Source of the DNA: an uncultured Dehalococcoidia bacterium
GTDB lineage: Bacteria; Chloroflexota; Dehalococcoidia; Lucifugimonadales; UBA3495
Direction: 5' to 3'
NCBI GenBank assembly: GCA_950072105.1
Contig: CATMOE010000010.1
Coordinates: 4,438-68,437, forward strand
Length of the DNA stretch: 64,000 nucleotides
The notes under the pieces: generated by a model
Databases searched by the model: none
Told to the model about the DNA's origin: nothing
Seen by the model: only the letters and a program-made list of their open reading frames with translations
Program-made: the position numbers and the translations under genes
In this document: in pieces, positions 4,352 through 42,246 of the stretch
How positions within the stretch are numbered: position 1 is the first letter of the stretch
Layout: every line of letters starts with the position of its first letter

Positions 4352-4553
4352 AAATCCGTCGGTCCTTGAATCGGGAATCCAGGATGATATTAGGGCCACG
4401 AGTATATCACACAGCCCCGGCAACCAAAAATAAAAGGGGGTTCCAGCCAAGGCCCAGGTCATCGGTAATCATCGCTAAATATACTCAGCTACCCAGGCCG
4501 TGGACTCGGCCATGCCCACCGCCTATAATCCTTCGTGGAGAATGTGAATTACG

Positions 4554-36152: not shown

Positions 36153-37382
36153 ATGCTAGCTGATCCCACTTCCCCGACGTCCATCGTCCCGCCATCTGGG
36201 ATGGCCCTCTACATCCATGTCCCCTTCTGCAAGACGAAGTGCCCCTACTGCGACTTCAATACCTACCAAGGTATCGAACGGATGATGGATCCTTATATGG
36301 GCGCCGTGACTCAAGAAATCACCCAGTGGGGGCGGGTGCTGGAAGGGGCGTCCATAAACTCGGTGTTTTTCGGTGGGGGTACGCCATCTTATCTCAAAGA
36401 AGGTTCCATCGACCGCATATTGGAGTCGGCTCGCTCCTCTTTCCAGCTTAAGGACGGCGCGGAAATCACGATAGAAGCCAACCCCGGCGACCTGGACCTG
36501 CCAGCCTGTCAGCGGCTGATTAACGCCGGGGTTAACCGTCTCAGCATTGGTGTGCAGAGTCTGGACAACGAATTATTGAGTCTCCTGGGCCGCCGTCACG
36601 ACGCCGATCAAGCCATGGCGGCTCTGGCAATCGCCCGGAGCGGCGGGTTTTCCAACATCAACCTGGATTTTATGTACGGACTGCCTCACCAGACGATGCT
36701 CCAGTGGCAGGACACCATGCAGCGTATGGTGTCCCAGCATCCCGACCACATTTCCCTATATTGCCTCACCCTTGAAGAAGGCACGCCGCTGCATCGATGG
36801 GTTGAAACGGGAAAGCTTCCCCAGGCTGACGAGGACCTGGCCGCCGACATGTATCACTACGCCGCCGATCTGATGGAACAAGAAGGCTACCAACATTACG
36901 AGATCTCCAACTGGTGCCTGCCAGGCTCTGAGTGCCGGCACAATCTGTGCTACTGGCTCAATCAACCGTATCTTGGCGTTGGTCCCGGAGCTCACTCCAG
37001 CCTAGGCGCGTACCGTTTCTGGGACATTTCTTCCCCCGGAACCTACATCGCTTCGGTCAACGACTGGGCAACCAAGAACCCCCAGCCGGCCATCGGACTA
37101 ACCGAAGAGGTCTTGAATAGCGTATTGCCCGTGGACCACCACGAACACATCGATGAGAACACTTTCTTGGCGGAGACCATGTTTTTGGGACTACGGCTGC
37201 TTGAAGGCATGGATCTAGCCGAAGTCTCAGCCCGCATAGGAATAGACCTGGGCGAGCGTTACCGGTCGGAGATCCAGGACCTCACCGAATTGGGGCTGCT
37301 GGAGCAAGAAGGACCTCTGCTACGCCTAACCAAACCAGCCCACCTGATCGCCAACCAGGTTTTCACCCGGTTCGTTGGGTGA
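36153..37382 (+). CDS. hemW: radical SAM family haem chaperone HemW
   Basis: ..LYIHVPFCKTKCPYCDFN.., ..FFGGGTPS.., HemN_C-type C-terminus. The start may be Met17 (36201). Confidence 0.85.
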   Translation: MLADPTSPTSIVPPSGMALYIHVPFCKTKCPYCDFNTYQGIERMMDPYMGAVTQEITQWGRVLEGASINSVFFGGGTPSYLKEGSIDRILESARSSFQLKDGAEITIEANPGDLDLPACQRLINAGVNRLSIGVQSLDNELLSLLGRRHDADQAMAALAIARSGGFSNINLDFMYGLPHQTMLQWQDTMQRMVSQHPDHISLYCLTLEEGTPLHRWVETGKLPQADEDLAADMYHYAADLMEQEGYQHYEISNWCLPGSECRHNLCYWLNQPYLGVGPGAHSSLGAYRFWDISSPGTYIASVNDWATKNPQPAIGLTEEVLNSVLPVDHHEHIDENTFLAETMFLGLRLLEGMDLAEVSARIGIDLGERYRSEIQDLTELGLLEQEGPLLRLTKPAHLIANQVFTRFVG

Positions 37383-37391
37383 GTTTGGGGC

Positions 37392-37724
37392 ATGCTGCTT
37401 CCCCGTCGCGAGAGCGCGTACATTCCACCCGCAAAATTAACCGGGTATCTCCTATCTGAAACACACCCTGTTGGCAGATTTAAGGCTCGATTTTTTTATG
37501 CCGTCGGATACGATTCCACTAATGCCCAATCACTTGAGCGGGCGTTGATCAACATCGCCCATGAACAGGAAGTCACTGATACTATTTCCACGTCCTACGG
37601 TACAATATATGTCATAGACGGTACTCTCCAAACACCGAGGGGAACCGATTTACAAATTAGAACAGTGTGGATCATAGTGCCAGGTGAATCTAGTTCGCGA
37701 TTGGTAACCGCCTATCCAGGTTGA
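37392..37724 (+). CDS. DUF6883 domain-containing protein (candidate toxin-like partner)
   Basis: 110 aa. ..KLTGYLLSETHPVGRFKARFF..GY.. and the C-terminal ..RLVTAYP match my memory of the DUF6883 pattern. Starts 9 nt after the hemW stop. Visibly AT-richer than flanks. Confidence 0.55.
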   Translation: MLLPRRESAYIPPAKLTGYLLSETHPVGRFKARFFYAVGYDSTNAQSLERALINIAHEQEVTDTISTSYGTIYVIDGTLQTPRGTDLQIRTVWIIVPGESSSRLVTAYPG

Positions 37725-37746
37725 GCGTTCATCGGGGAGAGTTTTT

Positions 37747-37977
37747 ATGGTTAAAGAGCTAGACACCGTCGTCCTGACCCACGCCATAAAAGAACACGGA
37801 CTGGAAGGTGGCGATATCGGAGCGGTAGTTCATTGCTATCCCGAGGGAACTGCTTTTGAAGTCGAGTTCCTCACCGCCGAGGGCAAAACCATAGCTTTGC
37901 TTACCCTAGACGAGACTGACGTCCGGCCCATGGGCGGCAGCGAGATCCTCCACGTTCGAGAATTCACGCCGGTGTAG
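37747..37977 (+). CDS. DUF4926 domain-containing protein
   Basis: 76 aa. MVKELDTVVLTHAIKEHGLEGGDIGAVVH..FEVEF.. pattern. GGGGAGAG RBS. Confidence 0.6.
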   Translation: MVKELDTVVLTHAIKEHGLEGGDIGAVVHCYPEGTAFEVEFLTAEGKTIALLTLDETDVRPMGGSEILHVREFTPV

Positions 37978-38123
37978 CAGAATTCCGGAAATCGCATATG
38001 GTGCGACCCTACGTTTCTCACTACCAGTTAGGGATTCCTTCAATTGATAGCTCAGGCGTATGGGTTTGGCTACCCCATTCTCGCCGCCGATGCTATTCTT
38101 TAGGGACACCGCCCTCAAGGACT

Positions 38124-38260
38124 AACCGCCCATGTACGTAATCGGCACCGCGGGCCACGTGGACCACGGCAAGTCTACCTTGGTCAAAGCCCTGACCAAC
38201 ATTGATCCCGACCGGCTCAAAGAGGAAAAAGAGCAGGTAGTGACAGTTCTTCCGAGATAA
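38124..38260 (+). pseudogene. duplicated 5' fragment of selB (RBS region plus first 34 codons, then 8 unrelated codons and TAA)
   Basis: 38124-38237 matches 39158-39271 at 109/114 positions. ATG at 38132 encodes [34 protein letters not shown], then QVVTVLPR and a stop at 38258-38260. Confidence 0.85.
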
Positions 38261-39157
38261 TCATCGCTTAGAAAGATTCAATATGATTCGTGAGTTACAA
38301 ACAGTTGTGCTTACGCACGATATCAAAGAGTTTGACTTAAAGATGGGCGACATTGGCACCGTAGTCCATCGGCACGGCGGCGACGAGTTCGAAGTTGAAT
38401 TTCGTATGACCGGAGGTAGGTCGAAAGCCGTAATTACTCTAACCGGGAATGATTTACTCTCCGAAAATCTTGGATCTGAAGAGGTGCCTTCTGGAAAATC
38501 AACTGAACACCCCTATGACCAGCAGATCCAAGAGGAGATATTGCCGTTTCTTCAAGACACGGCGTTTAATCATCTTGGGCATCTGAAGCGTGGCCTTCTG
38601 AGCACATTCTCGGTGATGTTGGATCAACATTGCTCTATCGATTGCGATGCCACGACACTATCTCTGGCGCTTCATGGCCATGGTCTAGGATTTGCCAGAT
38701 TATTCAAGGACCCGAACTTCAGAACCTTGACGACCGTATACTTCAATCTCGCAAACGATAATGATTACCTGGAAGCATGTTCGTTCCTCCGATTGTCGCT
38801 TCCTTCCGCGGAGCGTTTACAGGCGTTTAGAGAATTGAGCCAAAAAATACCGGAATTAGTATCTTCCAGGTATCCGGGTGGGCGGACACCACCTTTGAAC
38901 ATGGAATCGATGTTGTTCAGTAAGCTCTTTGAGATGTTGCTGTGCTACTCTCATGCAATCGCTGGCTTCAGTAACGCTATATACCGGTCCAACTTGATAC
39001 TTGAAGAGGAACTACTTTCTTAAAGTGCGGCACTACATAATGGGCGGTTCGGTGTACCACCCTAAGTACGCGATATTCCAATCAACACACGTAATGTCAG
39101 GCGTCTCTAGTGGCTAAAATGAGAAACTTTAAATCCGTCCATGTGCTAAATCGAGGA
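38238..39157 (+). mobile_element. 920-bp AT-richer insert bracketed by the 114-bp selB-5' direct repeats (single-gene cassette; no recombinase)
   Basis: Bounded by direct repeats 38124-38237 and 39158-39271. Composition is visibly lower in GC than neighbours. Contains only ORF 38283-39023. Confidence 0.45.
38283..39023 (+). CDS. DUF4926-like N-terminal domain fused to an unrecognised ~180-aa C-terminal domain
   Basis: 246 aa. Residues 1-60 (MIRELQTVVLTHDIKEFDLKMGDIGTVVH..FEVEF..) are about half identical to ORF 37747-37977. I cannot assign the C-terminal part to any family. Confidence 0.6.
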   Translation: MIRELQTVVLTHDIKEFDLKMGDIGTVVHRHGGDEFEVEFRMTGGRSKAVITLTGNDLLSENLGSEEVPSGKSTEHPYDQQIQEEILPFLQDTAFNHLGHLKRGLLSTFSVMLDQHCSIDCDATTLSLALHGHGLGFARLFKDPNFRTLTTVYFNLANDNDYLEACSFLRLSLPSAERLQAFRELSQKIPELVSSRYPGGRTPPLNMESMLFSKLFEMLLCYSHAIAGFSNAIYRSNLILEEELLS

Positions 39158-39271
39158 AACCGCCCATGTACGTAATCGGTACCGCGGGCCACGTGGACCA
39201 CGGCAAGTCCACCTTGGTCAAAGCCCTGACCAACATAGACCCCGACCGGCTCAAAGAGGAAAAAGAGCGGG
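39158..39271. repeat. right copy of the 114-bp direct repeat (native selB RBS plus first 35 codons)
   Basis: Direct comparison with 38124-38237 shows differences only at codons 5, 15, 24, 25 (all synonymous third positions) and codon 35 (CGG versus CAG at the junction). Confidence 0.85.
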
Positions 39272-41031
39272 AGATGACCATTGACCTGGGCTTTGCCTGG
39301 CTGACCTTGCCCAGCGGACGGGAAATCTCCATCGTCGATGTGCCCGGACACGAGCGGTTCATCAAGAACATGCTGGCCGGCGTCGGCGGAGTTGACCTAG
39401 CCATGCTGATCGTCGCGGCCGACGAAAGCGTCATGCCCCAGACCCGGGAACACCTGGCTATCCTCGATATCCTCCAGATCCGCAAAGGGATAGTCGTCAT
39501 CACCAAGACGGACACGGTTGACGAGGAACTGGTGGAGTTGGTCAAGGCCGAAGTGGAAGATTTCCTGGAAGGGACGTCCTTCCAGGGATGCCCCACGGTG
39601 GGCGTTTCCGCCTACACCGGCGACGGCCTTGACGAGCTCAAGTCCGTCCTAGATCAGGTGCTAGATAACACAGAGTCTCGGCGGGACCTGGGACGGCCCA
39701 GGCTGCCCGTGGACCGTAGTTTTACCATCTCTGGGTTCGGGACCGTGGTCACCGGAACGCTTATCGACGGTGCTCTTACCGTGGGCCAGGAGGTGGAGCT
39801 GGCCAATTCGGGCCGCCACGCCCGGATCCGCGGTCTCCAAAGCCACCAATCCAAAGTGGACCAAGCCCAACCCGGCGTTCGTTTAGCGGTAAATCTATCG
39901 GGCCTGTCCCGCAACGACGTGCCGCGGGGCGAAGTGCTTACTTCCGCCGGTTGGCTGCGCCGGACCAATCGATTGGACGCCAGGGTCAGGATGGTCAAAG
40001 GCGCGCCCCACTCCCTTCGTCACAACGAGGGCGTCACATTCCATCTATTTACCAGCGAGACCACCGCTCGCGTCAGGCTTCTGGACGCCGACCGCTTGGC
40101 CGCTGGGGAAGACGGCTGGGTCCAGATACTCCTCACCGAACCCCTGCCCATGGTCAAGGGCGACTTCTTCGTTCTGCGCTCGTCCGAAGACACACTGGGC
40201 GGCGGACAAGTGGTGGACCCCAACCCACGCCGCAGGCATCGCCGCTTCGTCGCTGAAGTCGTGGACCGGTTGATGACGCTGGACCAGGGTTCCGGCGAAG
40301 ACGTTCTCCTTAGTGTGGCCGACCAGTGGGGCCCCTGCGACACTTCGGTTCTGTCCCAGCGCTCCAATCTTCCCGTTTCCGAAGTTCTAGAGCGCATCGA
40401 AGCGCTGGAGTCTCAGGGCGACGTGGTAGTCCTGGGCGAATTGGGAACCGACAGCGGCGCCGTCGTTTACTCCACTCAAGGATGGAGCGCCATGACCGGC
40501 AAGCTTTTCCAGGCATTGCGCGCGTACCACGACCAATATCCTCTGCGCCGGGGGGCTCCCTCCCAAGAGATCCGCAGCCGGTTGGGTCTCTCTCAGCCCA
40601 TTTTCCTTAGGGCGCAAGCCCGGTTGACTGACCAAGAGTACTTAGTAGAAGAGGGGACGCATCTACGCCTTCCCGACCATCAAGTTGCCATGACTCCGGA
40701 GATGGAGGAAAAGGTTTCGGCATACATCAAAGCGTTGGAGCAAGACCCCTACTCTCCGCCCAGCGACCGGCCTTTGGACCCCGAGTTGCTGGGCGTTCTG
40801 GCGGAAGAGGGCAAGGTTGTACGGGTGAACGATACGATAGTGTTCGCCGCTTCTGCTTACCAAGAAATGACCGATCGCATCACCGAACACCTGAAGTCCA
40901 ACGGCAGCATTACGGTGGCCGAAGCCAGGACCATGTTCGACACCAGCCGCAAGTACATTCTTCCCCTTTTAGAGTATTTGGATCAACAGCGCGTTACTCG
41001 CCGGGTTGGCGACGAACGGGTGCTGCGGTAA
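39166..41031 (+). CDS. selB: selenocysteine-specific translation elongation factor
   Basis: 621 aa. G-motifs [21 protein letters not shown]. Long C-terminal winged-helix extension characteristic of bacterial SelB. Confidence 0.9.
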
Positions 41032-41037
41032 CCGGCC

Positions 41038-42246
41038 ATGCCCCTAGACCTGGGACAAACAATGCTCCAGTTGGACCTGGTGAGCCGGGGTCTGGTTGCC
41101 GATAGCGGCCAACGGGAAGCCCGCCTGACGGCCTTTGTCGACGCCGCATCCAAGGTCGACGCCGCGACGGCCATCGCCAAGACTGGATATGACCCAGAGC
41201 GCCCCTTTCTCGCCGCCCAGGTGCTGGACAGTTTGCTGGGCGCCTACGCCCCGGTAGAACCGCCCATGGACTGGTGCACGGTGGCCGTGGACGGGTCACA
41301 CATCGACGTGGACCGCCACCTACCCGTGGGCTGCTACCTGATCAACATGGGCGGCTGTTCATTGACCTACGGCTCTCAGCCTGACGCCAGTTTCTTCAGT
41401 CAGCCTAGCCTTTACCACCGGCCGGAAGACTTGTATCTAACCGATCCGTCAAACCCAAACTATGAAGAACCGGTGGCCGGTCCCCTGCTAGGTTTGATCC
41501 GTACTGTTCAGGAGTTGGAGCGCCTAGCCCAAGCGGTAGCAGACGTCCCAGCCGGTCTGCCCACTCTGGCGTTGGTCGACGGCTCCTTGGTCATGTGGGG
41601 ACTGTCGGGCCGGGGCTATCCTCCGTTCGTCAAAGAAGCCATCATCCAAGAGCGGCTGTTGCCGGCCCTGAACCAACTGCGGGAAGAGTCCCAACATCGC
41701 CCGCTTTGCCTGGCAGCCTACGTTTCCCTGCCCCGCAGCGCCGAGGTAGTAAACGCGGCCCGGACCAGTCTGTGCCCTACGGAACTTTCCCAGTGCCGGA
41801 GCCGTTGCAACAATCGCCGCAGCATCCAGGCGCCCTGCGACCTATCGAACGATTTCATCGACCGGGACTTGTTTCAACGAACGCTAGACCCGGGCTGGCG
41901 GTCGGCAACCTATTTGACCAACTCCTCGGTACCCAGGGAGAGCTACGGCGAACACCAGATCTGCTTCTTTTACCTGAACTGCGGCGAGGAGATCGGACGG
42001 ATCGAGCTGCCCCAGTGGGTCGCCCAAGACGAGAGGTTGCTATCCCTGTGCCACAGCCTGGTGCTAGACCAGTGCCGGCGCGGCCAGGGCTACCCGGTGG
42101 CCATCTCCGAGGCCCATGAGCAAGCGGTAATCAACGGCGCCGACCGCCAATTTTTCAAGCAGATGCTAGCGGAAGCCCTGGAACGAGAAGGCTTGCCGGT
42201 GTACACATCGGAAAAAGACCGCTCCAAACGCACGCCCTGGCTGTGA
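41038..42246 (+). CDS. nurA: NurA-domain nuclease
   Basis: 402 aa. ..VAVDGSHIDVDRH.. and ..LALVDGSLVMWGL.. NurA catalytic-Asp motifs. ATG lies 6 nt after the selB stop. No HerA in the window. Confidence 0.75.
   Translation: MPLDLGQTMLQLDLVSRGLVADSGQREARLTAFVDAASKVDAATAIAKTGYDPERPFLAAQVLDSLLGAYAPVEPPMDWCTVAVDGSHIDVDRHLPVGCYLINMGGCSLTYGSQPDASFFSQPSLYHRPEDLYLTDPSNPNYEEPVAGPLLGLIRTVQELERLAQAVADVPAGLPTLALVDGSLVMWGLSGRGYPPFVKEAIIQERLLPALNQLREESQHRPLCLAAYVSLPRSAEVVNAARTSLCPTELSQCRSRCNNRRSIQAPCDLSNDFIDRDLFQRTLDPGWRSATYLTNSSVPRESYGEHQICFFYLNCGEEIGRIELPQWVAQDERLLSLCHSLVLDQCRRGQGYPVAISEAHEQAVINGADRQFFKQMLAEALEREGLPVYTSEKDRSKRTPWL

Follow-up and report, generated by a model that had tools for sequence, protein, structure and literature searches.

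One apparently intact and one apparently decayed DUF6883–DUF4926 module between hemW and selB in an uncultured Dehalococcoidia bacterium: a probable type II toxin-antitoxin system

Introduction

Two kinds of described system lie especially close to a pair of small genes, encoding proteins of the families DUF6883 and DUF4926 (DUF, domain of unknown function), that lies between hemW and selB in a 64,000-nucleotide stretch of DNA from an uncultured Dehalococcoidia bacterium (positions 4,438 to 68,437 of contig CATMOE010000010.1, assembly GCA_950072105.1; the whole stretch is referred to here as the window). The first is the toxin-immunity pair CdiA-CT Kp342/CdiI, with the related CdiA-CT EC3006 and colicin D tRNase domains. 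CdiA-CT Kp342 is a BECR-fold tRNase that cuts the acceptor stem of uncharged tRNA-Ile, requires a Lys-Tyr-Thr triad together with a His and an Arg (K157, Y160, H170, R252 and T255), and is stimulated by EF-Tu, EF-Ts and GTP (PMC9086364). In the structure of the complex (6CP9), the toxin chain has five helices followed by four strands, and the immunity protein is nearly all beta (PMC9086364, Table 1). The second comprises the toxin-first type II toxin-antitoxin systems of the RelE/ParE superfamily, such as HigBA and BrnTA. These systems pair small genes of one orientation, separated by a short gap or overlapping by 4 nt, encode a toxin of the BECR superfamily, occur in chromosomal and plasmid copies and in strain-variable islands, and frequently show toxin decay and orphan antitoxins; in all of these respects the DUF6883–DUF4926 pair, with its predicted toxin, is alike.

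The islet between hemW and selB is read here, with a probability of roughly 0.7, as a type II toxin-antitoxin system present in one and a half copies, in which module 1 is intact, module 2 is a decayed allele, and the slot that holds them exchanges modules. In module 1 (37392–37977), which looks intact, the DUF6883 protein (tox1) is a predicted small ribonuclease of the BECR fold that most likely cuts tRNA, while the DUF4926 protein (AT1), encoded 22 nt downstream and presumably made from the same transcript, would bind and block it. Module 2 (38237–39023) appears to have lost its toxin gene, save for the last ~8 codons, through recombination with a duplicate of the selB 5′ end. The antitoxin of this module, a long form (AT2L, 246 aa), probably persists as protection against DUF6883 toxins, whether neighbouring or incoming, or in a regulatory role. 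The hemW–selB gap would then be a place in which strains of a marine Dehalococcoidia/Chloroflexota lineage collect modules and exchange them with one another.

Predicted fold and conserved residues of DUF6883

The 110-aa product of tox1 matches DUF6883 (PF21814) over profile positions 2–108 of 110 (E 2.7e-31, 108.5 bits; Pfam gathering threshold 27 bits). The AlphaFold2 model of this protein, built with an alignment, has a mean predicted local distance difference test score (pLDDT) of 96.4 and a predicted template modelling score of 0.88. It contains three helices (residues 13–20, 29–37 and 42–58) followed by a four-stranded sheet (residues 60–67, 70–80, 86–95 and 103–109), and the placement of N-terminal helices on a four-stranded antiparallel sheet corresponds to the core of the BECR fold. 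When the model was compared with the PDB using Foldseek, four matches were obtained at E <= 0.001, all of them chains (A, C, E and G) of 6CP9, the CdiA-CT toxin-immunity complex of Klebsiella pneumoniae 342 (E 2e-5, probability 1.00, template modelling (TM) scores 0.73/0.69). The matched chains are those of the toxin, because helices plus four strands are reported for the toxin and a nearly all-beta fold for the immunity protein (PMC9086364). RelE-family folds matched far more weakly than 6CP9; RelE proteins reach TM scores of 0.34–0.53 to the DUF6883 model, much below the CdiA-CT Kp342 type, and HP0892 and one chain from the entry for the Mycobacterium tuberculosis RelBE1 complex were among the weak matches. 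Matches of the DUF6883 profile to 'Pizza' designed propellers were rejected as spurious sums of six weak repeat matches.

The likeness to CdiA-CT Kp342 may extend to individual side chains. Across 63 homologues (alignment A1), K15, Y19, H25, G28, K31, G39, T91, W93 and T106 are invariant, and R103 is at least 90% conserved in a 12-sequence subset (A2). K15, Y19, H25, R103 and T106 are of the same residue types as K157, Y160, H170, R252 and T255 of the Klebsiella toxin and resemble them in order and spacing, with the Lys, Tyr and His in the N-terminal part and an R-x-x-T in the last strand. By this analogy Lys15, Tyr19, His25, Arg103 and Thr106 are proposed as the catalytic residues. The match to a tRNase toxin, together with the conserved Lys, Tyr, His, Arg and Thr, gives the DUF6883 model the fold of a growth-inhibiting enzyme, as expected for one partner of a type II system. 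The window's tox1 retains K15, Y19, H25, K31, T91, W93, R103 and T106, and module 1 therefore looks functional.

DUF6883 and CdiA-CT Kp342 share a predicted fold of about 110 residues and a protective gene immediately downstream, but differ in several respects. The two are 13–16% identical in the structural alignment, with no hidden Markov model match between CdiA-CT Kp342 and DUF6883, and CdiA-CT Kp342 is the tip of the secreted protein CdiA whereas DUF6883 is a stand-alone cytoplasmic protein. Additionally, CdiI Kp342 is almost all beta (PMC9086364), and the 76-aa DUF4926 protein, compared by sequence alone, is not detectably related to it; searches of PDB sequences with AT1 and the 246-aa protein gave no match to 6CP9, and such searches with all three proteins and two profiles yielded no genuine match to any entry.

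The fold is also seen in phage proteins. In BFVD, phage 'minor capsid' proteins of 473–497 aa contain a domain like the DUF6883 model (TM 0.83–0.90, 26–27% identity). The entries A0A8S5PTW3, A0A8S5QFC3 and A0A8S5MSY7 (316–497 aa; minor capsid or zinc metallopeptidase) have a DUF6883-like domain at TM 0.73–0.90 and 24–27% identity. These models suggest that a DUF6883-type domain may also be used as a delivered warhead in phage proteins.

Pairing of DUF6883 with DUF4926 across genomes

The 76-aa product of AT1 matches DUF4926 (PF16277; E 2.5e-21, 75.3 bits), as do residues 4–58 of the 246-aa protein (E 2.7e-13, 49.5 bits; gathering threshold 29.1 bits). The earlier note on this DNA, which had named these families from the letters alone and proposed a toxin-antitoxin module, had staked that proposal in advance on whether the two families co-occur, and their co-occurrence is near-obligate. 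A scan of one genome per species yielded 80 DUF6883 loci in many phyla, covering Chloroflexota, Nitrospirota, Cyanobacteriota, Planctomycetota, Desulfobacterota, Gemmatimonadota, Bacteroidota and candidate phyla. In 79/80 a DUF4926 gene lies directly 3′ of the DUF6883 gene on the same strand, mostly with a gap of -4 to +30 nt, and the genes flanking the pair are unrelated across the 80 loci. PF16277 was confirmed by Pfam in 78/78 submitted downstream ORFs (open reading frames), as well as in the window's two DUF4926 proteins and in that of L083, a distant relative discussed below. A reverse survey from the DUF4926 side covered 80 metagenome loci and one viral locus, and among the 71 with room upstream a DUF6883 gene lies directly 5′ in 58. 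In RefSeq, both families are encoded by adjacent genes on the plasmids pNHAL01 of Nitrosococcus halophilus and pTP143 of Thermus parvatiensis. A small, adjacent, co-directional gene pair that keeps its tight spacing across unrelated genomes is the arrangement of a type II toxin-antitoxin system. No match for the pair was found in NCBIfam, PADLOC (PADLOC-DB v2) or PHROGs, no defence model of PADLOC-DB v2 matched the three proteins or the C-domain of the 246-aa protein even with E values up to 1 allowed, and tblastn of toxin and antitoxin against 50,697 GenBank phage genomes gave no match.

The single exception among the 80 loci is L014, in which the toxin is fused in frame to a DUF2281-like tail. 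In this locus (L014:2884-3489, Microseira sp. BLCC-F43) the DUF6883 ORF continues into ADIQLEREIIRGQ...RDFAEFLQQK, a tail that normally closes the 101-aa cyanobacterial DUF4926 antitoxins (L017, L022, L056). Since the toxin is joined to the antitoxin's usual tail, an in-frame deletion appears to have removed the DUF4926 domain; this toxin also carries Gly in place of Y108. Two further loci are unusual. The sole viral contig found with the pair (L090:2663-3228, IMG/VR contig 3300007520_001356) has a 113-aa DUF6883-like gene overlapping a 77-aa DUF4926 gene, between large opposite-strand ORFs, and its toxin has Arg at the otherwise invariant His25 position (YLLNTTRMP). On the Agrobacterium pusense plasmid pAt1 (L173:1932-2312), a distant DUF6883 protein (30% identical) is encoded by a gene that overlaps the preceding 'BPTD_3080 family restriction endonuclease' gene; the next gene downstream encodes a 419-aa hypothetical protein, with no DUF4926 gene there, and the domain may have a different partner or a different use in this plasmid.

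Architecture of the DUF4926 antitoxins

Most DUF6883-linked antitoxins are 76–80 aa long. AT1 consists of a DUF4926 domain (residues 4–60) and a conserved C-terminal R.M...EILHVRE tail, and an R.M...EILHVR tail follows the DUF4926 domain in 56/81 sequences. The cyanobacterial antitoxins have a DUF2281-like helix in place of this tail, and further C-terminal variants include one 219-aa form and the orphan helical domain of the window and L083. Because DUF4926 is the sole constant element among the antitoxins, it is the best candidate for the toxin-binding part, with the variable C-terminal additions as putative accessories. The proposal of the earlier note that DUF4926 is a modular adaptor thus stands as far as the different C-terminal additions go (the EILHVR tail, the DUF2281-like tail, the 219-aa form and the helical domain), and is not supported where it couples the domain to effectors.

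Pfam and profile searches found no known DNA-binding domain in AT1 or AT2L. In this respect the pair differs from the RelE/ParE-type systems, as the DUF4926 antitoxin has no recognisable helix-turn-helix, ribbon-helix-helix, AbrB or Phd DNA-binding domain; furthermore, no NCBIfam or PADLOC model names the DUF6883–DUF4926 pair.

Organization of the hemW–selB locus

The features of the locus, in window coordinates, are as follows.

36153–37382, + strand: hemW/HemN-like radical SAM gene, 409 aa (Pfam Radical_SAM E 4.9e-29, HemN_C E 1.8e-14)
37392–37724, + strand: tox1, 110-aa DUF6883 protein, predicted toxin of module 1 (PF21814)
37725–37746: spacer between tox1 and AT1, 22 nt
37747–37977, + strand: AT1, 76-aa DUF4926 protein, predicted antitoxin of module 1 (PF16277)
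37978–38131, + strand: putative native selB upstream intergenic region, stranded before the stub (alignment with L001)
38124–38244, + strand: selB 5′ stub, left member of the 121-nt direct repeat, with about the first 37 selB codons including the P-loop
38132–38260, + strand: selB stub ORF, 42 aa (ORF map)
38237–38260, + strand: putative tox2 remnant, the last ~8 codons (VVTVLPR, stop), in frame with the stub ORF
38261–38282, + strand: toxin-antitoxin spacer of module 2, 22 nt
38283–39023, + strand: AT2L, predicted 246-aa long-form antitoxin of module 2 (DUF4926 at residues 4–58)
39024–39165, + strand: intergenic region that appears to have travelled with AT2L, now 5′ of the functional selB
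39166–41031, + strand: intact selB, bounding the slot on the right (Pfam domains GTP_EFTU, SelB beta-barrel and SelB winged-helix)
41038–42246, + strand: NurA-domain gene (ORF map)

The hemW gene forms the left border of the variable slot, with a gap of 9 nt to tox1, and its synteny is kept in L001, L006, L081 and L091–L096. The closest genomes are the marine metagenome-assembled genomes Dehalococcoidia ALOHA_A2.5_21 (L006) and Chloroflexota SAT91 (L001), whose selB proteins are 97–98% identical to that of the window. GC content over ~37350–39150 is 45–52%, against 55–65% in the flanks. The earlier note had described three small genes in an AT-richer islet between hemW and selB, a 22-nt gap between the first two, and a 246-aa protein whose first ~60 residues are about half identical to the 76-aa protein; the ORF map, the GC values and the measured identity of 48–53% all bear this out, as the Pfam matches do for its family assignments.

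The NurA-domain nuclease gene begins 6 nt past the selB stop codon. This adjacency is also present in L001, L006 and L083, and it is kept even in the distant L083, where NurA is 62% identical, which is an odd partner for a selenocysteine elongation factor. Scans of the entire 64-kb window for tRNA genes and Rfam families found no tRNA gene and no family at gathering score, and there is therefore no selC (tRNA-Sec) near selB. An 18-nt inverted repeat (37383–37400 and 39426–39443) is 83% complementary, has its arms 2 kb apart, and was treated as chance.

The 246-aa protein and the remnant of module 2

AT2L consists of the DUF4926 domain (residues 4–58), a linker, and a predicted helical orphan domain of ~170 residues (about residues 75–246), and it lacks the EILHVR tail. 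In tblastn comparisons its N-terminus aligns with the 76-aa protein at E 7e-14 to 9e-14. The upstream sequence, together with the context of the related gene in L083, suggests that AT2L is a long-form antitoxin left behind when the toxin gene of a second module was deleted, because a DUF6883 remnant and a 22-nt spacer precede it and because L083 carries a DUF6883 pseudogene in the same position. In L083 (selB 74% identical) a DUF6883 pseudogene in two frames is followed after 18 nt by the gene for P0124, a 250-aa protein with the same architecture as AT2L, and then by selB and NurA. The stub ORFs of closer relatives end in RPSLVTVFPG-stop (L087) and RPSIVTLYPR (L086), comparable to the DUF6883 C-terminal consensus RPRFVTAYP, and the window's stub, after a further 29-nt deletion, ends in VVTVLPR-stop. 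The module 2 spacer is as long as that between tox1 and AT1. The first 8 nt of the remnant (38237–38244) overlap the selB repeat copy and may be derived from either selB or tox2.

The deletion junction is common to the window, L081, L086 and L087, and the orphan antitoxin has therefore been kept under selection since the loss of the toxin. Between copies that share this junction, the ratio of nonsynonymous to synonymous substitution rates (dN/dS) of AT2L is 0.20–0.25 in both domains at a dS of about 0.45, indicating that the gene is real and maintained.

The ~180-aa C-terminal part of AT2L has no match in Pfam, NCBIfam, PADLOC, PHROGs or PDB sequences, in keeping with what the earlier note had said of it. 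Three close homologues of this domain were found in 5.8 billion clustered proteins and six proteins by an exhaustive HMMER pass over 1.84 billion representatives, and a profile search added no further members, giving a total of about nine clusters in the two sets. P0125–P0128 (171–198 aa) consist of the domain alone. In an alignment of eight sequences (~170 residues, 23–37% identity to distant members) only F68, F72, L87 and C97 are invariant, and the conserved Asp, Glu, His, Lys, Arg or Ser that an enzyme would be expected to show is absent. An AlphaFold2 model of the 246-aa protein made without an alignment has a pLDDT of 42, too low for a fold search. An XRE-type helix-turn-helix in this domain (a 'TLSRAL.G.G' motif) was considered and rejected, as the profile-profile probability (hhalign) was 0.4% with a comparison alignment of six XRE sequences, one of them from L014. 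The contexts of the four stand-alone homologues give no functional clue, since their contigs are all under 2 kb with no DUF4926 or DUF6883 gene nearby. Upstream of and divergent from one of them (P0126) is a 69–76-aa ORF (L085:44-271, minus strand; MGKKRLHLEFSEEFDEVLEELKQTFEKRSKVEVIRTAVTLL...) that looks like a ribbon-helix-helix protein.

Decay and selection

The two genes of the pair decay unequally. The toxin ORF is interrupted or truncated in 13/80 genome loci and the antitoxin is affected in 2/80. The metagenome survey contains 13 loci with toxin remnants only and 13 with none, each beside an intact antitoxin. A frameshift also disrupts the toxin gene of L001, which is closely related to the window, while its antitoxin gene is undamaged. 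In loci with two undamaged genes, dN/dS is 0.19–0.28 for the toxin and 0.05–0.17 for the antitoxin, indicating purifying selection on each.

Synonymous divergence is uneven across the islet. Between the window and L006, dS is 0.06 for tox1, 0.33 for AT1, 0.17 for hemW and 0.10 for selB; between the window and L001 it is 0.74 for AT1 and about 0.17–0.20 for the flanks. These comparisons rest on small counts (5–27 substitutions), and the pattern suggests allele exchange with breakpoints inside the module.

Recombination at the hemW–selB slot

The slot carries a clear recombination scar. A direct repeat of 121 nt, far beyond chance, places 38124–38244 and 39158–39278 at 93% identity, spaced 1034 nt apart. 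The first ~113 nt of the intact selB lie in the right copy, and residues 3–33 of the stub match GTP_EFTU. A selB stub is also present in L081, L086, L087 and L091–L093. Upstream of the stub, 37978–38131 aligns with the region 5′ of the intact selB in L001, with the last ~75 nt nearly identical, and is unrelated to 39024–39165 apart from the ~20 nt that immediately precede the ATG. The repeat begins only 4–8 nt before the selB ATG in the window and L083, and it ends at an illegitimate junction, which falls at the tox2 3′ end in the window and in the middle of hemW in L083. These sequences are most simply explained by recombination between two alleles of the slot, in which one end would have used homology at the selB 5′ end and the other would have been illegitimate. 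Recent tandem duplication as the source of the two DUF4926 genes, which the earlier note had suggested as a paralogous duplication, is ruled out by their ~50% identity and different downstream intergenic regions; the two genes are therefore distinct alleles joined by recombination. The recombination scar itself, also read from the letters in that note, is confirmed by the repeat, the junction and the intergenic homology.

The description of the slot as a hotspot is justified, because closely related genomes carry different cargo in it. Four states are seen: tox1–AT1 (L001, L094); tox1–AT1 followed by a DUF433 gene and a DUF5615/PIN-like gene (L006, L095, L096); the window type (L081, L091–L093); and the L083 type. 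In the second state (L006:3656-4266, L095:1259-1865, L096:1816-2412) the DUF433 gene (93 aa) overlaps the gene for the DUF5615/PIN-like protein (109 aa) by 1 nt. This pair, which is toxin-antitoxin-like, directly follows the DUF6883–DUF4926 pair and takes the position of the window's stub and long antitoxin; its families are unrelated to DUF6883 and DUF4926, and it is absent from the window. Its presence in the same slot indicates that the slot collects toxin-antitoxin-like pairs. In L083, a chimeric ORF (L083:3086-3667, the same in L084:2-523) joins selB codons 1–54 to hemW residues ~256–408. Its 162 selB nt match the start of the genuine selB, 1.7 kb further downstream, at 99% identity, hemW is truncated at the chimeric locus, and the upstream genes are unlike those of the window.

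Weighing the alternatives

The toxin-antitoxin reading, which the earlier note had offered as one candidate, draws on the fixed-order co-occurrence and tight spacing of the pair, the predicted BECR fold, the decay of toxins with retention of antitoxins, and the foreign composition of the islet. Several points weigh against it. Searches of the available literature returned no experimental toxicity, RNase activity or neutralisation for either family, and direct binding between DUF6883 and DUF4926 is an assumption. The link to CdiA-CT is structural only, as phmmer and profile searches of PDB sequences with DUF6883 found no BECR protein, and the proposed equivalence of catalytic residues comes from order and spacing, not from structural superposition. 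No promoter or operator for the islet was detected in a promoter and terminator scan of 36900–39400, which gave fewer sites than shuffled sequence, and tox1 starts only 9 nt past hemW. The dN/dS of tox1 between the window and L006 is 0.7, on few substitutions, and recent relaxation of selection is therefore possible. For module 2, AT2L may not neutralise DUF6883 at all, because the EILHVR tail of the short antitoxins is absent. Lastly, the window's 24-nt tail matches both selB and the tox1 3′ end at ~13/24 positions each (by eye), and its assignment to tox2 relies on the relatives L086, L087 and L083.

A different role for the orphan DUF4926 genes, the 246-aa form included, is conceivable, if rather unlikely. 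They may serve as immunity genes against DUF6883-type toxins arriving from outside, on plasmids or as MuF-type phage or other polymorphic warheads. The helical domain would then add sensing or regulation, and the selB-proximal slot would be a small 'immunity island' and not a graveyard of addiction modules.

The pair is unlikely to be a toxin-immunity cassette left stranded from a secreted polymorphic toxin system, whether contact-dependent inhibition (CDI), a type VI secretion system (T6SS) or phage MuF, with lone DUF4926 genes as orphan immunity genes. The best structural match of DUF6883 is indeed a CDI toxin domain, orphan DUF4926 genes are frequent, and BFVD places the fold at 24–27% identity in the 473–497-aa phage 'minor capsid' proteins and in a 316-aa protein. 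Polymorphic toxin domains are known from MuF-type phage proteins (PMC5576092), which favours this explanation as well; the window protein, in comparison, is the domain alone, and the BFVD proteins, as putative MuF-type carriers, are likened to it by structure match. All 120 listed of the 762 DUF6883 homologues found are stand-alone proteins of 94–128 aa with DUF6883 as their sole Pfam domain, however, and the gene has its own start codon, with no ORF for a delivery domain upstream in the 80 genome loci. The pair is also found on plasmids, and in phyla and genomic settings that lack CDI or T6SS genes. For the orphan antitoxins, the toxin-antitoxin and polymorphic-toxin readings are compatible and not exclusive.

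Quite improbable is the view of the 246-aa protein as a self-contained conflict protein, with the C-domain as effector and DUF4926 as sensor, adaptor or intramolecular inhibitor; the earlier note had similarly taken it for an orphan fusion to an effector. An activity of the C-domain is possible, as it occurs alone in P0125–P0128 and is under purifying selection, but its four invariant residues include none of catalytic type. In two independent lineages the gene follows DUF6883 remnants and occupies precisely the place of an antitoxin gene, the toxin gene having been lost by deletion from the window clade and reduced to a pseudogene in L083, and other DUF6883-linked DUF4926 proteins also have variable C-terminal additions that look non-enzymatic. 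The absence of any match in PADLOC, Pfam, PDB and PHROGs likewise speaks against this view. AT2L is accordingly retained here as a predicted long-form antitoxin.

A pair with a housekeeping role and no toxicity, such as an RNA-processing enzyme and a small partner in a shared pathway, would suit the purifying selection on both genes, the possible co-transcription of tox1 with the abutting hemW and a toxicity of DUF6883 that is only inferred, but it is highly improbable given the patchy and strain-variable distribution, the foreign GC, the carriage of the pair on plasmids, the frequent and asymmetric pseudogenisation of the upstream gene, the fold common to dedicated toxins and the unrelated flanking genes across the 80 loci.

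Significance

The novelty claimed for the pair in the earlier note holds in part: no annotation resource names it, but both families are named in a 2026 bioRxiv preprint on the classification of BECR ribonucleases (10.64898/2026.08.28.747851), the only paper mentioning both that was found by literature phrase searches. By phrase match, the preprint contains 'DUF6883 domain' and 'DUF4926 protein' once each. The assignment of DUF6883 as a toxin has probably been proposed by computation already.

For these two families, the analysis offers a specific hypothesis, namely that of an RNase toxin like colicin D and CdiA-CT Kp342 paired with a new family of small antitoxins, with candidate catalytic residues named. 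The presence of the module on Nitrosococcus and Thermus plasmids and in cyanobacteria makes it clonable from cultured organisms. The C-domain of the long antitoxin is among the rarest conserved domains measured, at about nine clusters in billions of proteins. The natural decay series, which runs from the intact pair through the frameshifted toxin and the deleted toxin to the lone antitoxin, is useful for understanding how modules erode and why antitoxins persist, in a family that spans many phyla, including the hard-to-culture marine Chloroflexota.

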